Assembly: GCA_028700115.1 (NCBI GenBank)
Contig: JAQVTI010000021.1
Location: forward strand, 1-7,496
DNA from: Candidatus Iainarchaeum sp.
GTDB taxonomy: Archaea; Iainarchaeota; Iainarchaeia; Iainarchaeales; CSSED10-239
Direction of reading: 5' to 3'
Length of the DNA stretch: 7,496 nucleotides
The notes below the pieces were generated by a model. It saw only the letters and a list, made by a program, of their open reading frames with translations. It had not been told where the DNA came from and did no database searches. Numbering within the stretch: position 1 is the stretch's first letter; every line of letters begins with the position of its first letter. A program made the position numbers and the translations under genes. This document shows, piece after piece, positions 201 to 7,189 of this stretch.

Positions 201-247
201 TTTTTTAAATATTGTGTTCTAGAATTATTTTAATTATAAAAAGTGAG
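201..247 (+). promoter_or_regulatory. Candidate archaeal promoter and ribosome-binding region of the giant gene
   Basis: TTTAAATA (204-211) fits the archaeal TATA consensus TTTAWATA. A second TATA-like stretch TTTAATTATAAA lies at 228-239. GTGAG (243-247) is a partial match to GGAGGTGA, 9 nt before ATG 257. AT-rich background makes such matches common. Confidence 0.3.
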
Positions 248-256
248 TTGGTTATT

Positions 257-316
257 ATGTTAAAATATTTGAATATATTTTTTGTTATTGTGTTGTTAAT
301 GCCTTTTGCTTTTGCA
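257..316 (+). other. Predicted Sec-type signal peptide of the giant protein
   Basis: MLKYLNIFFVIVLLMPFAFA followed by ELQP: short Lys-containing n-region, 12-13 residue hydrophobic core, A-x-A at -3/-1. By-eye prediction only. Confidence 0.6.
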
Positions 317-3300
317 GAACTACAACCTGTTTTTTTAGATCAAAATATACACTATTTTGGCGAAGAAATAAATTTTGGATTAGTAGGTATTATTCCCGAC
401 GATTTTAATCGTGCAGAATTTCAAATCCAATTACCTATTGGGGACAACTATCATGAAGCTACTTTGTCTTTAACTAATTTAAGTGATTATAGTTTTTCTT
501 TTCCTTTGGATTTTATATATAACGAATTGAAAATAAAATATGTATATTATAATTTTGACAATATAGAAATATTAAATCAAGAACATTTATTAAAATTAGA
601 GAAGTTGTCAATTATAGAAAATATAGGTTATTGTATTAATTCAATCTGTAATAATACTTATTTTGATGACGTGAATGCTAATGAAATTGAATTAACTACT
701 TTTCCTAAAATTAGTGATGAAAACATAAATTTTGATATATTATTAATTTTAGATGGATATATTATAGAAGAAGTAAGAAACACTAAATTACCACATTATT
801 TTGACATAAGAGCAGGAGAGTATGAAATAAAAATAACTCCTAATTATGGGGATTTAAAATTTATAACTAAGTCTTTATTTTTAAATATAATTATAATGCA
901 AGAGAATAATAATAATTTAAGAGAATATTTGAATGAAATTAAAGAACAAGACGCAGATAAAGAAACATTTGTGCTTTTAAATAACGATGAATCTCAGATT
1001 AAAGAACTAAAAACTGAGGGCGAAAAAAATAACTTTTGGATAATTGGATTAGGAATACTTGGAGGATTGATTATTTTGATTACAATATTATTTTTTAATA
1101 AACAAAAAGATAAAAACGAAAAAACAAATAGAAGAGAACTTCGTAAAAGTAGGGGTTTTTTGTTTTTCGTATTTTTTTTATTTTTAGCGTCTTTTGCTTT
1201 TGCAACACCTCTTGATGAAAAAAATGCAGAATATAATAATTTAGAAACCAAATTTAATACATTACAAGAATTATTTCCTTATCCGAAAGCATTTACAATA
1301 AGTGTTAGTAATAGCAATCCACAAAACACACAGTATTATCCAATTTTTGCAACTGGGTTGAATGACACTCAAATCCGTCCCGTTTTAAATAATAAAACCC
1401 AAAATTTGACTGCGAATTTAGAAGCAATTTATTTTTCGATAGATATAAAGAACGCAATCGAAAAATCTAAAACTAATAACAATCCTCTTTTTTTTGAGAG
1501 CGGTTGCGAACAAGTATTAGAGTGGTTTCAAGCAAATCCAATTACAGAAGATCCAAATACTTTGATTGCAAGAACGAAAGAAAATTTATTAAAGAATATA
1601 ATAATAACGGATAAAAAAAACGGATATACCGATAGAGATGTTGTATTTATTAATAATAAACTTAATGAATTAAAAAATAACAAAAAATATAATAATTCAA
1701 TAAATCCTTATGCTGATTATTGTATTTCTGAATATTTGACTAAATTAGAATCTAATCTTGGTGGGAAATATCTTGTGGAAAAAAAAATTTTATTAAAAAT
1801 AAATTATTTTGAAAAAAACACAGAAAAAATAGAAACTCAAGATGACGAAATTACAGATACTATTGTGTTTTTAAATAACAAAAATAAAGATGTTTTAGAA
1901 GGTGAATTTTTAGGTAGCGATCTTAACCATATATTTGTTGAAGTAAATTATGTTAATGATATTTTAAAAGAACAAAGTTTAGTTTTACAAGGAATACCAA
2001 CAGATAGAATTATTAGAAAAGATAATTTAATTGAAGGCAATAAAATAAGTAACTATACTATTCCTTATTTAACAGAAGGAGAAAATTTAACTATAAAATA
2101 TACGGCTCAATTAATAAATTTAGAAATAATGGATTCCGATTATGGTAGTTATTATCAATTAGAAGAGTTGCCTGTAGATTCTTCTGAAATTTATAAAAAA
2201 GGTTTTGCTTTTGTAATTCCTGATAAAAGCATAGCTGCTTTAAGAAATAAAATTATATCTAATATAGAATTAACTGGAATGGTTCGTTTAAATAATGGCA
2301 GATACGAATTAAAATGGAACCCTGAATCGTTAGCTATTCTTGCAGAAGCAAATATTAATCCTGCAAAATTTATTATTATAGATAAAAAGATAATAATTAA
2401 TATAGGTCCAGAAAATCAAAAATTAAATTTAGGTATAGATTGGGATTACGGAATAATACTTGCCGATTCTTCTGAAATTACTTTGTTACTTGAAGAAGAA
2501 AATACCATTTATTTAACACCAAACATAACTAATTTGTATTTAGAATTACTTAAAAAAACAATTATAAAAGCAACAAGCCAAAAGAATTTAGAATTAATTA
2601 GATTACAATTGCCTATTTTTTTTATATTTACATTTAAGAAAAATGCACAAACTATTAATAATGAAGACGCATTATACTTGAAAACATATGATGAAATTGC
2701 AGATTTTCTTAAAAATACAAACCTTACTCCATTAGAAAAAAACATTATATTTAATAATTTAATTTCTTTAACTGAAGATTTTTCTTTTCCAAAACAAGGG
2801 GGTGGGCTATATAAATTTAAATATAAAACAAGATTAGTCCTTAATTACGGGCTTGTTAATTATATTGATAATCCAGAAAATATAAGTAATATTAATATAG
2901 AAAATCAATCTGCAGCAATGCCTTATTTATACGATAATGCTTATTTAGAACGAAAAGGTTTTGTTGATAAAGATTTAACTAAATTTTTGATTTTAGGATA
3001 TCTAGGAGACAATTACAGGTCTTATAATCCTGAACTAAATAAAGATTCAGCATATGATTCGTATGATTCTTATGAATCAGATTTTAAATCACAAACACAA
3101 AAAATATTTGTGGACCAAAATGCGAATGAACAAAATTGGGGGTACTATAAACAATTAATATCGTATCCATTTTATAGAACTGGATTTGAACAAAAGCCAT
3201 GTTCTTATGATAAAGTTAATTTTCCCGAATATTTCTCTGAAAGTTATTGTTCTGTTGCATATAATTTTAATTCTGAAAGTGGAAATTTTGGGACATTATA

Positions 3301-6300
3301 TAATCCAAACAATCTTAATGAGGGTTGGTTAATGCAGGATTACGACTTTCAAAATAATTATACTTCTGCATATAGATCTTTATTACTTCTTGAAGATATA
3401 GATTCTTTTAAAAACAACAAACTTACATTTAATTCAAATCAACTTAAAACATTTAATAAATTAAATGCATTTCTTAGTTTGATAGAATTAGAAGCTATAA
3501 GAAAAAGAGATTCTGGTAATACTAAAAATTATGGAACGGCATTAGTTTTATCTTATAAATTACTAGAGCTTTGGAATGGAAATTATAACGCATTAAAAGA
3601 ATATGATGATTCTAACAGACTTGGACAACAAATTTCTAATATAAATGCGGCTCTTGCGTATCAAGCAACCGTTAAATTAAAAAGCATCATTGCATCAGAC
3701 AAAATTATGAGGTTAGATGCTTATAAAAATATATATGAAACAGATTTTGATAGATTTAAAGAGTCTATTGATCCATCTGCCGGATTTTTTGATCTTACAG
3801 ATTCTGCAAGATTTATGATTACTGGTAGTTGGTTTGAAACATTTATTTTTACGGGGACTAAAAAAGATGTAGAGAAATTAGAACAAAGAGATAGAGATAA
3901 ATATAATAAATTATTACACGGCGCTTGTTGTATAGCGCAAAGATTGGGAGAATTAGAAGGTGTGTCAAATTATAAGAATTGGACGGTTGCTGAAATTAAA
4001 GATAATTACAGTCCATATTCTAAAAATAATAAAATAAAAAATGATGTTATTGGTTGGGTGACTGAAAGATCTGGGTGTAGTGGGACATTAAGAGCAAATC
4101 CAGACGATTGTGCAACAGACATATTATATTTGTATAATTCAAAAGAATATGGAAAAGACCTTTCTATTATTTTAAATGATACAAAAGAAAAAAAATCTAT
4201 AACTAATTATTTAACACAACACTATAATACTAAAGGTCAAATAAATTTAGATATTGATAATGGAGTGCAACTAAGTAGTACAGAAATAGAATTAGAAAAA
4301 GATATTGCAAAATTTAAACCCGGAACAATTGGTAGTGTTTTAAAATTTATAGATGCCGGAATTAATCCCGTGGCAATAGTTCTTACAGTGGCTACTGTGG
4401 GTATAGGTCATGGACTAGCAACAGGAACAGGTGGTTTTTTTACAAGAGTTGCGGGCGGTTTTACAGCAAAATTAGGAACTTCTACAGCTGGAAGTTTAGC
4501 GAGTACTGTGGGTGCGAGAGTAGTATATGAATTGGGGGAAAATGTAGTTATAGACGGGACATACGGAGCGTTAGCTTATAAATTGCCAAATGTTGCGGGC
4601 AAACATCCATTTTTAACTTGTATATTGTTGGGTGTTGTTGCTGGAAATTTTCAAAAACCTTTAGCTAGTTTGGATAATGCTGCAAAAATAATGACTACAG
4701 ATATAATTACAAATGCTGGTTTAAAAAATGCAGACAGTATAAAAATACAAACTGCAATAAAAGAGTCGTTAAATTTAGATTATCAAGATACTGCTGAGCA
4801 ATTATTGAAATTAAAAAGCGGAGAGTCTGCAACAGATGCATTTTTTAAAAAACTACCTAAAGTCGCGGCAGGTTCTGTTGATGATGAACTTGTTAATTCC
4901 ATACAAAAAAATCTAGTGGCTCAAAAAATTTCTGTAAGTGCGGATGTTATAAAAAAAAGTTTAGAAAATAACAATATATATTTAACAACAAGAGCAACGG
5001 CAGTTTCTAAATTTAAATCAACTAAAAGTCTTATAGAAATAAATAGAATGGTTGAAGCAAATTTAGATGAATCTTCTGATAAATTTATTAAATTAGCGAC
5101 AAACCGAACAGTGCCTGAAAGACATGGAATTAAATTTGCAAATATCGTTGACGAATTTGACGATTTAAAAAGATTCAACGAAATTGACCCAGAACATTTT
5201 GCAAAACCAACAAGAATAATATACGATGATTTTGGAAATCCATTAGGTTATGAGATGGATAAAATAAACGGGTTTACTCTTGCAGATTATATTGAAGGGG
5301 GCGGCACACTAGATGATTCTTTTTATAAGAGAATAGAAGATTCTGTCGAAAAATTACATAAGCAAGGATATGCTCACGGCGATATTAATCCTAGAAATAT
5401 AATAATTACTCAAACACCAGAAGGATTAGATTTTAAAATAATAGACCCGGTTGGCTTTAGAAAGCTTGCAGACAATGTAAATTTAAGAAGCACAACAGAT
5501 ACAATAATAAATGACGACACTATAAATGTTAGAAATTTAAAGAACTATACAACTTCTGATCAAATATATTATCAAACAAATTATGTTCCAAAAAATACGG
5601 CATCTCCAGGAATTAAATCAGGCGATTATGTAGTTATAGAAAATAGTACGACTAATAAAATTGGAAAAATACAAATAACACAAGATGGCAGATATTGGAT
5701 AAATTTTTCGGATGGTTCCTCAGGGTATTATAATGAATTAGATATTATAAATATGAAAAACCTAGATAATTATAAGAAACTAGTAGATACAAGTTATATA
5801 AATACATACACTGATGATTATTTAGGTGGACCATTTTTAGAAACACCGAAAAAATTACCAGACACATTTATTTTTAAAAGTACAAATAATTTGGATGGAA
5901 GAGAAATTATTCTTGTTGATAAATTAAATGACCCTATACTAAAAAATTTTTTGTCAGATTTAAAATTAGATTTAAAAAACCTCAGCAGGAGGGATGAATT
6001 TGGTACATTTCTGGATAAAGTATCTTTGGTTAAACAAAGAGTGGATTCTGTAATGAGTCATTATCAAGATTTGGAAAACAGAACAAATTTACTAAAAAAT
6101 ATAATTAACAATAAAGATGTTTCTGGGCAAGTTGTTCCATTAGGTTATTTTATAAATAATAATATAGGGGTTTGTAGACATCGAGCATTATTATATAAAT
6201 TAGCATTAGATGAAATAGATATTAGGTCAACAATAGTAAGAGGTTGGAAAAAAATTGATGGTCTAGATGTAAGACACTCGTGGGTAGAAATAAACGATCC

Positions 6301-7189
6301 CGGAATATCTCGGATGGTAAATGTAGAAGTAGGGGATGGATTTGAGTTAGTGGAATCTTATAAGGGTGTTGGATTTAAGCAATATTTACTTCCGGATGAA
6401 ATGTATGTAGAAAACTATGTAGGAATAAGAAGTATATCAGATTTAGGTCTTGTTGCTGACGAATATTTGCTGTTATATACTCCTCCAAAAGGCGCCGTAG
6501 CCACTGGAGATGGTTTTTTGCATAATAGGAATCCATATCAACACGGTTATAGTACAACAAAGAATTTACAAACAATTGAAATAAAAATAAATAATGCATT
6601 AAAAAATAATTATAGTTTAACTACTTTAGATGACTCGGCGTTTAATAGCGATTCGATAGGATATGCACTTAGAAATATTAATTCAGAATATAGTTCGAAT
6701 GATATAACACAATTAATGATTTATCAGCATCAAAAAATTCAGGATTATATAGATGGCGATATGATATTTTCGCATATATATAAATTAGATAATCCGGTAA
6801 GTAGGAGTTATTTAACAACAGATCAGATTTTGTCTTTAAAAGAAAGAGTGGTGGCTGATTTAAAACAACAAAATATCATTATTCGTTTGGCTGAAGACGG
6901 ATCTATTCAAAAATCATATGGTGCAGGAAAATATAGTTCATTAACGATGATTTCTAGTGGCGAATCTATAATATCAATAGAAAAATCGGCATTTAACGAT
7001 ATAAGTATATTTTCAAAAGAAATGCAAAAAAATTACGCGGTGTGGAGGTTTTCAAAACTTTACGGAAGTAAAGATAAAATTCCGGTATTTTTAATCCCAA
7101 CCCCTGATGGACAGGGCGTGAAACCAATTTGGGCGACTGAGTATTATACAGACTATTATTCTAAAAATTACAACGAATTATTCAATTAA
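257..7189 (+). CDS. Giant multi-domain membrane protein (hypothetical): signal peptide, ecto modules, TM segments, kinase-like domain, SH3/Tudor-like barrel, EDR1/transglutaminase-like Cys-His domain
   Basis: Single stop-free frame 212-7189 on the ORF track. I prefer ATG 257 (2,310 codons) because it yields a canonical signal peptide MLKYLNIFFVIVLLMPFAFA|ELQ. It is preceded by GTGAG (243-247, 9 nt spacing) and TATA-like TTTAAATA (204-211), which TTG 212 would abut. TTG 212 remains possible, with AGGAAGGG at 193-200 upstream. The other five frames are shattered. Block-wise composition and catalytic-looking motifs support real coding. Confidence 0.9.
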   Translation: MLKYLNIFFVIVLLMPFAFAELQPVFLDQNIHYFGEEINFGLVGIIPDDFNRAEFQIQLPIGDNYHEATLSLTNLSDYSFSFPLDFIYNELKIKYVYYNFDNIEILNQEHLLKLEKLSIIENIGYCINSICNNTYFDDVNANEIELTTFPKISDENINFDILLILDGYIIEEVRNTKLPHYFDIRAGEYEIKITPNYGDLKFITKSLFLNIIIMQENNNNLREYLNEIKEQDADKETFVLLNNDESQIKELKTEGEKNNFWIIGLGILGGLIILITILFFNKQKDKNEKTNRRELRKSRGFLFFVFFLFLASFAFATPLDEKNAEYNNLETKFNTLQELFPYPKAFTISVSNSNPQNTQYYPIFATGLNDTQIRPVLNNKTQNLTANLEAIYFSIDIKNAIEKSKTNNNPLFFESGCEQVLEWFQANPITEDPNTLIARTKENLLKNIIITDKKNGYTDRDVVFINNKLNELKNNKKYNNSINPYADYCISEYLTKLESNLGGKYLVEKKILLKINYFEKNTEKIETQDDEITDTIVFLNNKNKDVLEGEFLGSDLNHIFVEVNYVNDILKEQSLVLQGIPTDRIIRKDNLIEGNKISNYTIPYLTEGENLTIKYTAQLINLEIMDSDYGSYYQLEELPVDSSEIYKKGFAFVIPDKSIAALRNKIISNIELTGMVRLNNGRYELKWNPESLAILAEANINPAKFIIIDKKIIINIGPENQKLNLGIDWDYGIILADSSEITLLLEEENTIYLTPNITNLYLELLKKTIIKATSQKNLELIRLQLPIFFIFTFKKNAQTINNEDALYLKTYDEIADFLKNTNLTPLEKNIIFNNLISLTEDFSFPKQGGGLYKFKYKTRLVLNYGLVNYIDNPENISNINIENQSAAMPYLYDNAYLERKGFVDKDLTKFLILGYLGDNYRSYNPELNKDSAYDSYDSYESDFKSQTQKIFVDQNANEQNWGYYKQLISYPFYRTGFEQKPCSYDKVNFPEYFSESYCSVAYNFNSESGNFGTLYNPNNLNEGWLMQDYDFQNNYTSAYRSLLLLEDIDSFKNNKLTFNSNQLKTFNKLNAFLSLIELEAIRKRDSGNTKNYGTALVLSYKLLELWNGNYNALKEYDDSNRLGQQISNINAALAYQATVKLKSIIASDKIMRLDAYKNIYETDFDRFKESIDPSAGFFDLTDSARFMITGSWFETFIFTGTKKDVEKLEQRDRDKYNKLLHGACCIAQRLGELEGVSNYKNWTVAEIKDNYSPYSKNNKIKNDVIGWVTERSGCSGTLRANPDDCATDILYLYNSKEYGKDLSIILNDTKEKKSITNYLTQHYNTKGQINLDIDNGVQLSSTEIELEKDIAKFKPGTIGSVLKFIDAGINPVAIVLTVATVGIGHGLATGTGGFFTRVAGGFTAKLGTSTAGSLASTVGARVVYELGENVVIDGTYGALAYKLPNVAGKHPFLTCILLGVVAGNFQKPLASLDNAAKIMTTDIITNAGLKNADSIKIQTAIKESLNLDYQDTAEQLLKLKSGESATDAFFKKLPKVAAGSVDDELVNSIQKNLVAQKISVSADVIKKSLENNNIYLTTRATAVSKFKSTKSLIEINRMVEANLDESSDKFIKLATNRTVPERHGIKFANIVDEFDDLKRFNEIDPEHFAKPTRIIYDDFGNPLGYEMDKINGFTLADYIEGGGTLDDSFYKRIEDSVEKLHKQGYAHGDINPRNIIITQTPEGLDFKIIDPVGFRKLADNVNLRSTTDTIINDDTINVRNLKNYTTSDQIYYQTNYVPKNTASPGIKSGDYVVIENSTTNKIGKIQITQDGRYWINFSDGSSGYYNELDIINMKNLDNYKKLVDTSYINTYTDDYLGGPFLETPKKLPDTFIFKSTNNLDGREIILVDKLNDPILKNFLSDLKLDLKNLSRRDEFGTFLDKVSLVKQRVDSVMSHYQDLENRTNLLKNIINNKDVSGQVVPLGYFINNNIGVCRHRALLYKLALDEIDIRSTIVRGWKKIDGLDVRHSWVEINDPGISRMVNVEVGDGFELVESYKGVGFKQYLLPDEMYVENYVGIRSISDLGLVADEYLLLYTPPKGAVATGDGFLHNRNPYQHGYSTTKNLQTIEIKINNALKNNYSLTTLDDSAFNSDSIGYALRNINSEYSSNDITQLMIYQHQKIQDYIDGDMIFSHIYKLDNPVSRSYLTTDQILSLKERVVADLKQQNIIIRLAEDGSIQKSYGAGKYSSLTMISSGESIISIEKSAFNDISIFSKEMQKNYAVWRFSKLYGSKDKIPVFLIPTPDGQGVKPIWATEYYTDYYSKNYNELFN
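1034..1204 (+). other. TM helix, basic loop and second signal-peptide-like helix
   Basis: FWIIGLGILGGLIILITILFF (1034-1096), NKQKDKNEKTNRRELRKSRG (1097-1156), FLFFVFFLFLASFAFA (1157-1204), then TPLD. The loop has 9 Lys/Arg in 20 residues, which fits a cytoplasmic loop under the positive-inside rule. Confidence 0.6.
4322..4651 (+). other. Gly/Ala/Val/Thr-rich hydrophobic island with at least two TM-length segments and a GxxxGxxxG motif
   Basis: GTIGSVLKFIDAGINPVAIVLTVATVGIGHGLATGTGGFF...KHPFLTCILLGVVAGNF. GIGHGLATG is at 4400-4426. There is an abrupt local rise in G+C relative to the rest of the gene. Confidence 0.55.
4976..5470 (+). other. Minimal protein-kinase-like (Bud32/RIO/Kdo-like) domain
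   Basis: Catalytic-loop-like GYAHGDINPRNIII (His 5375-5377, Asp 5381-5383, Asn 5396-5398). Metal-binding DFG-equivalent FKIIDPVGF (Asp 5444-5446). Hinge-like GYEMDKINGFTLADYI (5246-5293). Candidate beta3 Lys in AVSKF (5009-5011). No obvious Gly-rich loop or APE segment. The N boundary is uncertain. Confidence 0.55.
5897..6400 (+). other. EDR1-like / transglutaminase-like papain-fold domain with candidate Cys-His-acidic triad
   Basis: GREIILVDKLNDPILKNF ... VVPLGYFINNNIGVCRHRALLYKLALDEIDIRSTIVRG ... DVRHSWVEIND ... MVNVEVGDG. Cys 6173-6175, His 6275-6277, acidic candidates Glu 6326-6328 or Asp 6335-6337. The pattern G-x-C...(basic)V.G...H.W.E fits the transglutaminase-like core. CRHRALL[FY]K matches my memory of plant EDR1/CTR1 N-terminal domains. 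Confidence 0.6.

Follow-up and report, generated by a model that had tools for sequence, protein, structure and literature searches.

Comparison with relatives from one family of DPANN-type archaea identifies positions 1034 to 1204 of a Candidatus Iainarchaeum sp. contig as the seam of two protein modules, which occur either joined in one open reading frame (ORF) or as two overlapping genes. The stretch analysed, hereafter the window, is the whole 7,496-bp contig C27 (GenBank JAQVTI010000021.1) of genome G000, an assembly of 964,791 bp in 47 contigs with 22.4% GC and 89% completeness, whose small subunit ribosomal RNA scores 1365 bits with the archaeal model, the winner of clan competition. 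A single ORF on the positive strand (257 to 7189) encodes a protein of 2310 amino acids (aa). The alignments show the internal unit at 1157 to 1204 to be homologous, by position, to the real Sec signal peptide of module 2, and assign the RR motif that precedes it to the predicted cytoplasmic tail of module 1. It is somewhat probable that an archaeal Sec11-type signal peptidase cuts the fused protein after residue A316, and the combination of seam, internal signal and cleavage, taken as the best explanation of the whole, appears to have a slightly better than even chance of being right. The transmembrane (TM) segment, the basic loop and the second FAFA unit described in an original prediction for this DNA are all present where it had placed them.

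In split relatives, the two modules are separate genes that meet at the seam. Profile A1, covering the first 480 residues, was searched in 196 genomes of the order, and convincing matches were confined to the window's own GTDB family; weak matches outside this family, f1 (L024 to L034), were discarded as a generic TM segment plus basic tail in unrelated proteins. The split forms came from the genome profile searches and from a search seeded with a split gene (gene 1 of G015); a word-based search with module 1 of the window found no stand-alone homologues, and phmmer against the representative library returned four matches, all of them fused. Altogether, 18 sequences have an in-frame seam and at least six have a stop/ATG overlap. 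The original prediction had pointed to orthologues that might show a stop/start pair between about 1097 and 1160, and at least six related assemblies (G009, G012b, G015, G021, and Logan contigs L058 and L059/L060) have such a pair, placed exactly after the RR motif and ahead of the hydrophobic unit. The gene 1 products of G015, G012b, G021 and G009 are 287 to 321 aa long and consist of a signal peptide, module 1 and a TM segment, the stop following directly after the RR-motif tail (e.g., NRRTSRKKR). In these loci the ATG of gene 2 overlaps gene 1 in another frame, by 4, 11, 4 and 14 nucleotides (nt), respectively, and gene 2 opens with a normal n-h-c signal peptide, ending for example in QTFA/SP, ahead of the module-2 domain. 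Gene 1 is likewise followed by gene 2 in L058 and L059/L060, with an ATGA overlap and with a signal peptide belonging to gene 2. The search seeded with G015 gene 1 recovered four more stand-alone proteins of 304 to 319 aa from independent assemblies, those of L058 and L059/L060 among them, and G012 carries a fused copy (G012a) and a split copy (G012b) on one contig. The gene-2 signal peptides are like the window unit in their homologous position and flanks, their equal core length and their c-region pattern (QTFA/SP against FAFA/TP); however, they have their own Met and a Lys-rich n-region, the part that in the fused unit is supplied by the RR tail of module 1. In G015, a run of seven A residues lies just before the ATGA, where a -1 slip would recreate the fused protein.

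The same junctions raise the question of internal initiation, by which module 2 would be translated from a start codon inside the fused ORF with no proteolysis. GGAG-like stretches lie upstream of the gene-2 ATG in split relatives, and one fused homologue, G008 (L038), has an in-frame Met-Lys directly before the core (RRYMKC...). However, positions 1097 to 1204 of the window contain no ATG or GTG, the sole candidate being a TTG inside the core that would leave a signal without an n-region, and most fused homologues have no Met at the seam, making an internal start very improbable. The Met-Lys of G008 looks like a retained or incipient start codon. The GGAG-like stretches are formed by the AGA/AGG Arg codons of the RR motif, 11 to 14 nt upstream of the gene-2 ATG (L049 at about 1395 to 1420, and the L037 and L036 junctions), and these codons may also act as a ribosome-binding site in the split forms.

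The unit that follows the gene boundary has a conserved layout in all 18 fused homologues: TM1, the NRRxxRK loop, a hydrophobic core of 10 to 13 residues, a polar break, and an aliphatic-aromatic-small ending. A column profile was drawn from 12 aligned lineages with 20 to 30% identity and wholly different core sequences. Columns -16 to -12 are hydrophobic in all 12 lineages and columns -11 to -7 in 10 or 11 of them; column -5 is polar or helix-breaking in 11, column -3 is aliphatic or small (A/I/V/T/L) in all 12, column -2 is aromatic or His in nine, and column -1 is A, G or S in 11 and T in one, with acidic or basic residues from +4 onward. The core is preceded by a positively charged n-region, NRRELRKSR in the window, of which the RR and the R/K are invariant; in alignment A1 the invariant residues are R292, R293, E294, R296 and K297. 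Since the core sequences themselves are not conserved, the small residue at -1 is held by selection and not by inertia. The core measures 10 to 13 residues in every lineage, compared with 19 to 23 for TM1, although the window is a borderline case whose c-region is also hydrophobic. Judged by this alignment, the profile is that of a textbook signal peptide, one that occupies residues 291 to 316 of 2310 in the fused protein and is N-terminal in the split relatives only.

An invariant RR followed by a moderately short hydrophobic stretch could also be taken for a Tat signal directing module 2 to the Tat pathway. The residues after RR are E/x/R/K, however, and not the x-F-L-K of the consensus (S/T-R-R-x-F-L-K); in split relatives the RR stays at the C-terminus of gene 1, most gene-2 signals starting with MK and lacking RR, and the 89%-complete genome yielded no TatC. 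This reading is rejected as close to impossible.

The predicted cleavage site was compared with those of the organism itself by means of a position-specific scoring matrix (PSSM) trained on 33 N-terminal cleavage sites from the genome's own ORFs, which read (I/V/L)-(F/Y/S)-A. The internal unit scores 9.9 bits, the same as the median that the real sites give under leave-one-out scoring, and of 352 internal hydrophobic segments just 3.4% attain 10 bits. The second-highest of these negatives (12.2 bits) is itself the seam of a second fused family member, a 1207-aa ORF on the minus strand of contig C24 in the same genome, where a TM segment, NRREIRFKR, a 13-residue core and NIFS/LPE lie at about residues 270 to 305. 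BLASTP ties the C24 member, which the genome profile search had missed, to G006, G012a and P0008.

The genome encodes SecY and archaeal signal peptidase I, and the fused protein matches the layout of a two-product precursor, with a signal peptide, an ecto domain, a TM segment, a cytoplasmic loop, an internal signal and a second ecto domain. Module 1 would be a type-I surface protein whose beta-rich ecto domain follows a signal peptide and is held by a TM anchor, with an Arg-rich tail (NRRxxRK) in the cytoplasm; module 2 would be a large exported protein with variable enzymatic ends. By topology rules, the first signal peptide would be cut, module 1 would lie outside, TM1 would stop transfer and the basic loop would remain inside, with the internal unit acting as a start-transfer signal from which module 2 would be threaded out through SecY. 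A cut after A316 would then give module 1 with a two-helix hairpin and module 2 with the new N-terminus TPLDEK, products that would essentially equal the mature products of the split-gene relatives.

The other way to read this layout is as a helical hairpin that is never cut, in which the unit stays in place as a second TM helix, a reverse signal anchor responsible for both the export and the tethering of module 2; its resemblance to a signal peptide would then be inherited or incidental, and it would serve as a cleaved signal in the split relatives only. Two hydrophobic segments, TM1 of 21 residues and a second uncharged one of 20, are joined by a 20-residue net-positive loop that fits the positive-inside rule, and the resulting topology, of the E. 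coli leader-peptidase (Lep) type, is a common one. The unit reaches 2.32 in a 19-residue Kyte-Doolittle (KD) window, and the short fused forms have no other module-2 anchor. An uncut hairpin would nevertheless leave unexplained why lineages with such low identity keep A/G/S/T at -1 and aliphatic or aromatic residues at -3 and -2, as at the genome's real sites; its purely hydrophobic core of 10 to 13 residues is signal-peptide-like and unlike TM1, and the split relatives can dispense with both the covalent link and the anchor. The two outcomes are inseparable by sequence; the conserved profile and the viable split forms moderately favour cleavage, and a permanently uncut protein is regarded as possible, if rather doubtful.

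Several points weigh against cleavage and the series of homologues on which it is argued. Between the last Arg and the first acidic residue lie 20 to 24 uncharged residues (20 in the window), enough to cross the membrane and to form a stable TM2, and the SFAFA c-region of the window is itself rather hydrophobic. Several family members score near 0 with the matrix trained on G000, and homologue P0013 has T at -1. TM2 is the sole anchor of module 2 in the short fused forms, and fusion could be selected to tether module 2 uncut. An AlphaFold2 (AF2) model of residues 1 to 500 from a 7-row alignment predicts helices at 259 to 281, 290 to 314 and 319 to 339 with a break at 315 to 318, but the predicted local distance difference test score of 54.7, with local confidence below 50 at the break, means that this break counts for little. 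Among the split loci, G009 is weak by itself, having a scaffold gap of 10 N after the gene-2 signal peptide and a reading frame that a single-base change in an A-run restores, and the argument is therefore carried by the other five junctions.

The direction of the event was considered from maximum-likelihood trees of modules 1 and 2, which are congruent. The fused G012a and G016 form a clade with all split forms (support 100/99), and all sequences outside it are fused. In the module-2 tree the split forms make up one group (85/80); the module-1 tree leaves them unresolved. A single change explains this distribution of fused and split forms, and with the midpoint root that change is a fission. 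The original prediction had proposed, as one of three readings, that two genes were fused by loss of a stop and a start; the gene junction in that proposal stands, given the stop/start pair at the seam of at least six relatives, but its direction is doubtful, as the splitting of a fused ancestor is, on the trees, no less likely than fusion. Also to be set against the account given here, this direction rests on a midpoint root with no outgroup, and a single fusion is a live alternative. Neither the split gene-2 products nor the short fused forms have a later TM segment, so that, if the ancestor was fused, fission would deprive module 2 of the one anchor it had unless cutting already took place, and would be near-neutral only in that case.

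The repeat that first drew attention to this region is less telling than the unit that contains it. Across the whole genome, the 14-mer CTTTTGCTTTTGCA occurs at 303 to 316 and 1191 to 1204 only, both times encoding the FAFA that ends a hydrophobic segment, which bears out the 14-nt identity originally reported and adds no further copy. Shuffling gives an expectation of 0.01 14-mer matches in the window, and two of the three FAFA peptides in ORFs of at least 80 aa genome-wide belong to the 2310-aa protein. The weight that the original prediction placed on the repeat is not justified, however, because orthologues without a second FAFA keep the signal-peptide-like unit: the 57% orthologue G019 retains FAFA at the N-terminus and has SSIYG internally, and the internal c-regions of other relatives read SSIHA, TVLA, FVTA, ITFS/ITFA, PLHS, SVFA and FVYS. 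The exact FAFA repeat, which is shared with a single strain of 97.7% identity and no other relative, is a lineage quirk and not a conserved feature. The 14-mer is a tandem repeat of the hexamer TTTGCW in a genome that uses TTT for 95% of its Phe codons and GCA and GCT for 60% and 36% of its Ala codons, and with codon usage this extreme the DNA identity largely follows from the peptide identity; codon usage alone gives p = 0.19 for two FAFA peptides sharing all 12 nt, and about 0.05 when the preceding CT is included. F-A at -2/-1 is the commonest pair among the genome's own signal-peptidase sites (14 of 33), so that FAFA at both places represents two instances of a preferred motif. The identity is thus convergence on the cleavage motif that the organism prefers, helped by codon bias.

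Short DNA copying, whether by micro gene conversion of the N-terminal site or by slippage in TTTGCW, would account for the same repeat. The identity is unique in the genome, both copies persist in the 97.7%-identical strain (L056), and the internal state is derived, close relatives having SSIYG or SSIHA at about 6 nt difference. The tract is just 14 nt long, however, its identity given the peptides has p of 0.05 to 0.2, and F-A is the commonest site dipeptide in the genome, so copying is considered unlikely. It bears on the origin of the motif only and fits any functional reading.

The features of the window are collected in Table 1, together with a neighbouring gene of the split loci.

Table 1. 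Features of the 2310-aa ORF and its seam in the window, and of a gene adjacent to the split homologues
Feature	Location	Strand	Basis or remark
N-terminal Sec signal peptide	257..316	+	Predicted cut at 316/317 after FAFA; PSSM 12.8 bits; start Met at the equivalent place in orthologues
First copy of the 14-nt word CTTTTGCTTTTGCA	303..316	+	Word search of the window and genome
Module 1, beta-rich ecto module, residues 21-259	317..1033	+	Separate gene product in split relatives
TM1, 21-residue predicted stop-transfer anchor of module 1	1034..1096	+	KD 19-residue window 2.83; kept in fused and split forms
20-residue basic loop, predicted cytoplasmic	1097..1156	+	NRRELRK motif at 1127-1147; equals the C-terminal tail of gene 1 in split relatives
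Hydrophobic core, residues 301-311, of the internal signal-peptide-like unit	1157..1189	+	Aligns with the h-region of gene-2 signal peptides
c-region SFAFA	1190..1204	+	Predicted signal-peptidase site after 1204; includes the other 14-nt copy (1191-1204)
Conserved N-terminal domain of module 2	1205..2194	+	Homologue of the region where the mature gene-2 product of split relatives begins (alignment A2, profile search)
Remainder of module 2	2195..7186	+	Large ecto region, Gly/Ala-rich weakly hydrophobic island, kinase-like and EDR1-type peptidase-like tail
Protein of about 160 aa with pilin-like start	L036 9364-9843; L037 6458-6955; L049 11-520; L058 3482-3961

The AF2 model of module 1 consists mostly of strands, at moderate to low confidence, and the N-terminal cleavage site is followed by [ED]LQP in all orthologues. 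The alignments contain no conserved PGF-like motif before TM1 of the kind that would mark a PGF-CTERM or archaeosortase-type tag on module 1; PF09721 was not found in the genome, a weak test given that the model also missed the Haloferax control. Pfam searches of the 2310-aa protein matched an EDR1/CTR1/ARMC3 peptidase-like domain and, weakly, a kinase, all in the tail, and nothing else. The Gly/Ala-rich island at 4322 to 4651 is barely at the TM threshold (KD 19-residue window 1.61), and this borderline value makes a cytoplasmic placing of the kinase/peptidase tail uncertain; if the island does not span the membrane, all of module 2 is extracellular. The strain represented by Logan contig L056 has 97.7% DNA identity with the window over 228 to 5489, but its C-terminal portion of about 600 residues (window positions from about 5490 to 7186) is wholly different, a cassette-like swap that recalls polymorphic effector proteins. 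The core of its N-terminal signal peptide is unlike that of the window and identical to the core of a distant homologue, P0008.

Immediately upstream of gene 1 in the split loci inspected (G015, G009, G021 and L058) lies a gene for the protein of about 160 aa listed in Table 1, which begins with a pilin-like sequence (KKGASE or KGASA and a hydrophobic helix), suggesting an operon link to a pilus or other surface structure. G015 also has a third tandem gene (L036 2554 to 5772, minus strand) for a paralogue of module 2 that carries a separate signal peptide and an NlpC/P60 domain; the latter domain recurs at the end of gene 2 in G009 and, as a faint match, in L058. Members of the family thus carry cell-wall hydrolase heads, and the presence of NlpC/P60 in relatives of module 2 fits an extracellular location.

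Internal signal peptides cut by signal peptidase are textbook knowledge for viral polyproteins and are documented for a few eukaryotic proteins; the literature searched contained no relevant report of their processing in archaeal envelope proteins. The family described here is an archaeal example with an unusually clear series of fused and split forms, which serves as a natural control: if cleavage is true, the mature products are equivalent in both forms. It bears on whether the archaeal Sec11-type peptidase cuts internal signals, and on how genes for secreted proteins can fuse and split without losing export. The balance tips a little towards a DPANN-type archaeon that routinely makes two surface polypeptides from one ORF by means of its housekeeping signal peptidase, in effect a cellular archaeal 'polyprotein'. 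The 2310-aa protein, if cleaved, may be a 296-residue subunit anchored by a hairpin and a 1994-residue subunit bearing the effector; with two subunits, the topology and the kinase/peptidase tail need a different reading, and annotation is affected.

Among known systems, Lep and the window protein share an arrangement in which a basic cytoplasmic loop joins H1 to H2 and a large exported domain follows. In double-spanning Lep constructs (LepCC/LepH2) exposed to a Sec11-type peptidase, an H2 of 14 Leu was cut, one of 17 Leu was partly cut and one of 20 Leu was uncut (Nilsson et al. 1994, as described in PMC8277137). The window core of 10 to 13 residues is shorter than the 14-Leu H2 cut in these constructs, which argues for cleavage. 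However, native Lep is uncleaved, and the constructs were engineered and assayed with a eukaryotic peptidase and not with the archaeal enzyme.

Viral envelope polyproteins are cut at internal signal peptides, as in prM-E of flaviviruses and pestiviruses and GPC of bunyaviruses (reviewed in PMC7601889). Like the window protein, they have a TM anchor followed by the signal of the next product, and the signal is left on the upstream product after the host signal peptidase has cut. By comparison, the window holds a cellular archaeal gene with one seam only, whose origin is documented by split and fused homologues. The original prediction cited viral polyproteins as the known case of internal signal cleavage, which is correct as far as it goes but incomplete, since astrotactins, with the same topology as the window protein, are also cut (bioRxiv 10.1101/493858). 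In the vertebrate astrotactins Astn1 and Astn2, TM2 is cut by the Sec11-type signal peptidase of the endoplasmic reticulum (Lara et al., bioRxiv 10.1101/493858), and the shared topology is the basis on which they serve as a precedent for cleavage. They have no sequence relationship to the window protein and belong to another domain of life; their fragments are disulfide-linked, whereas no such link is known for the window protein, in which cleavage is predicted only. Natural split-gene relatives, of which none are described for astrotactins, are present for the window family.

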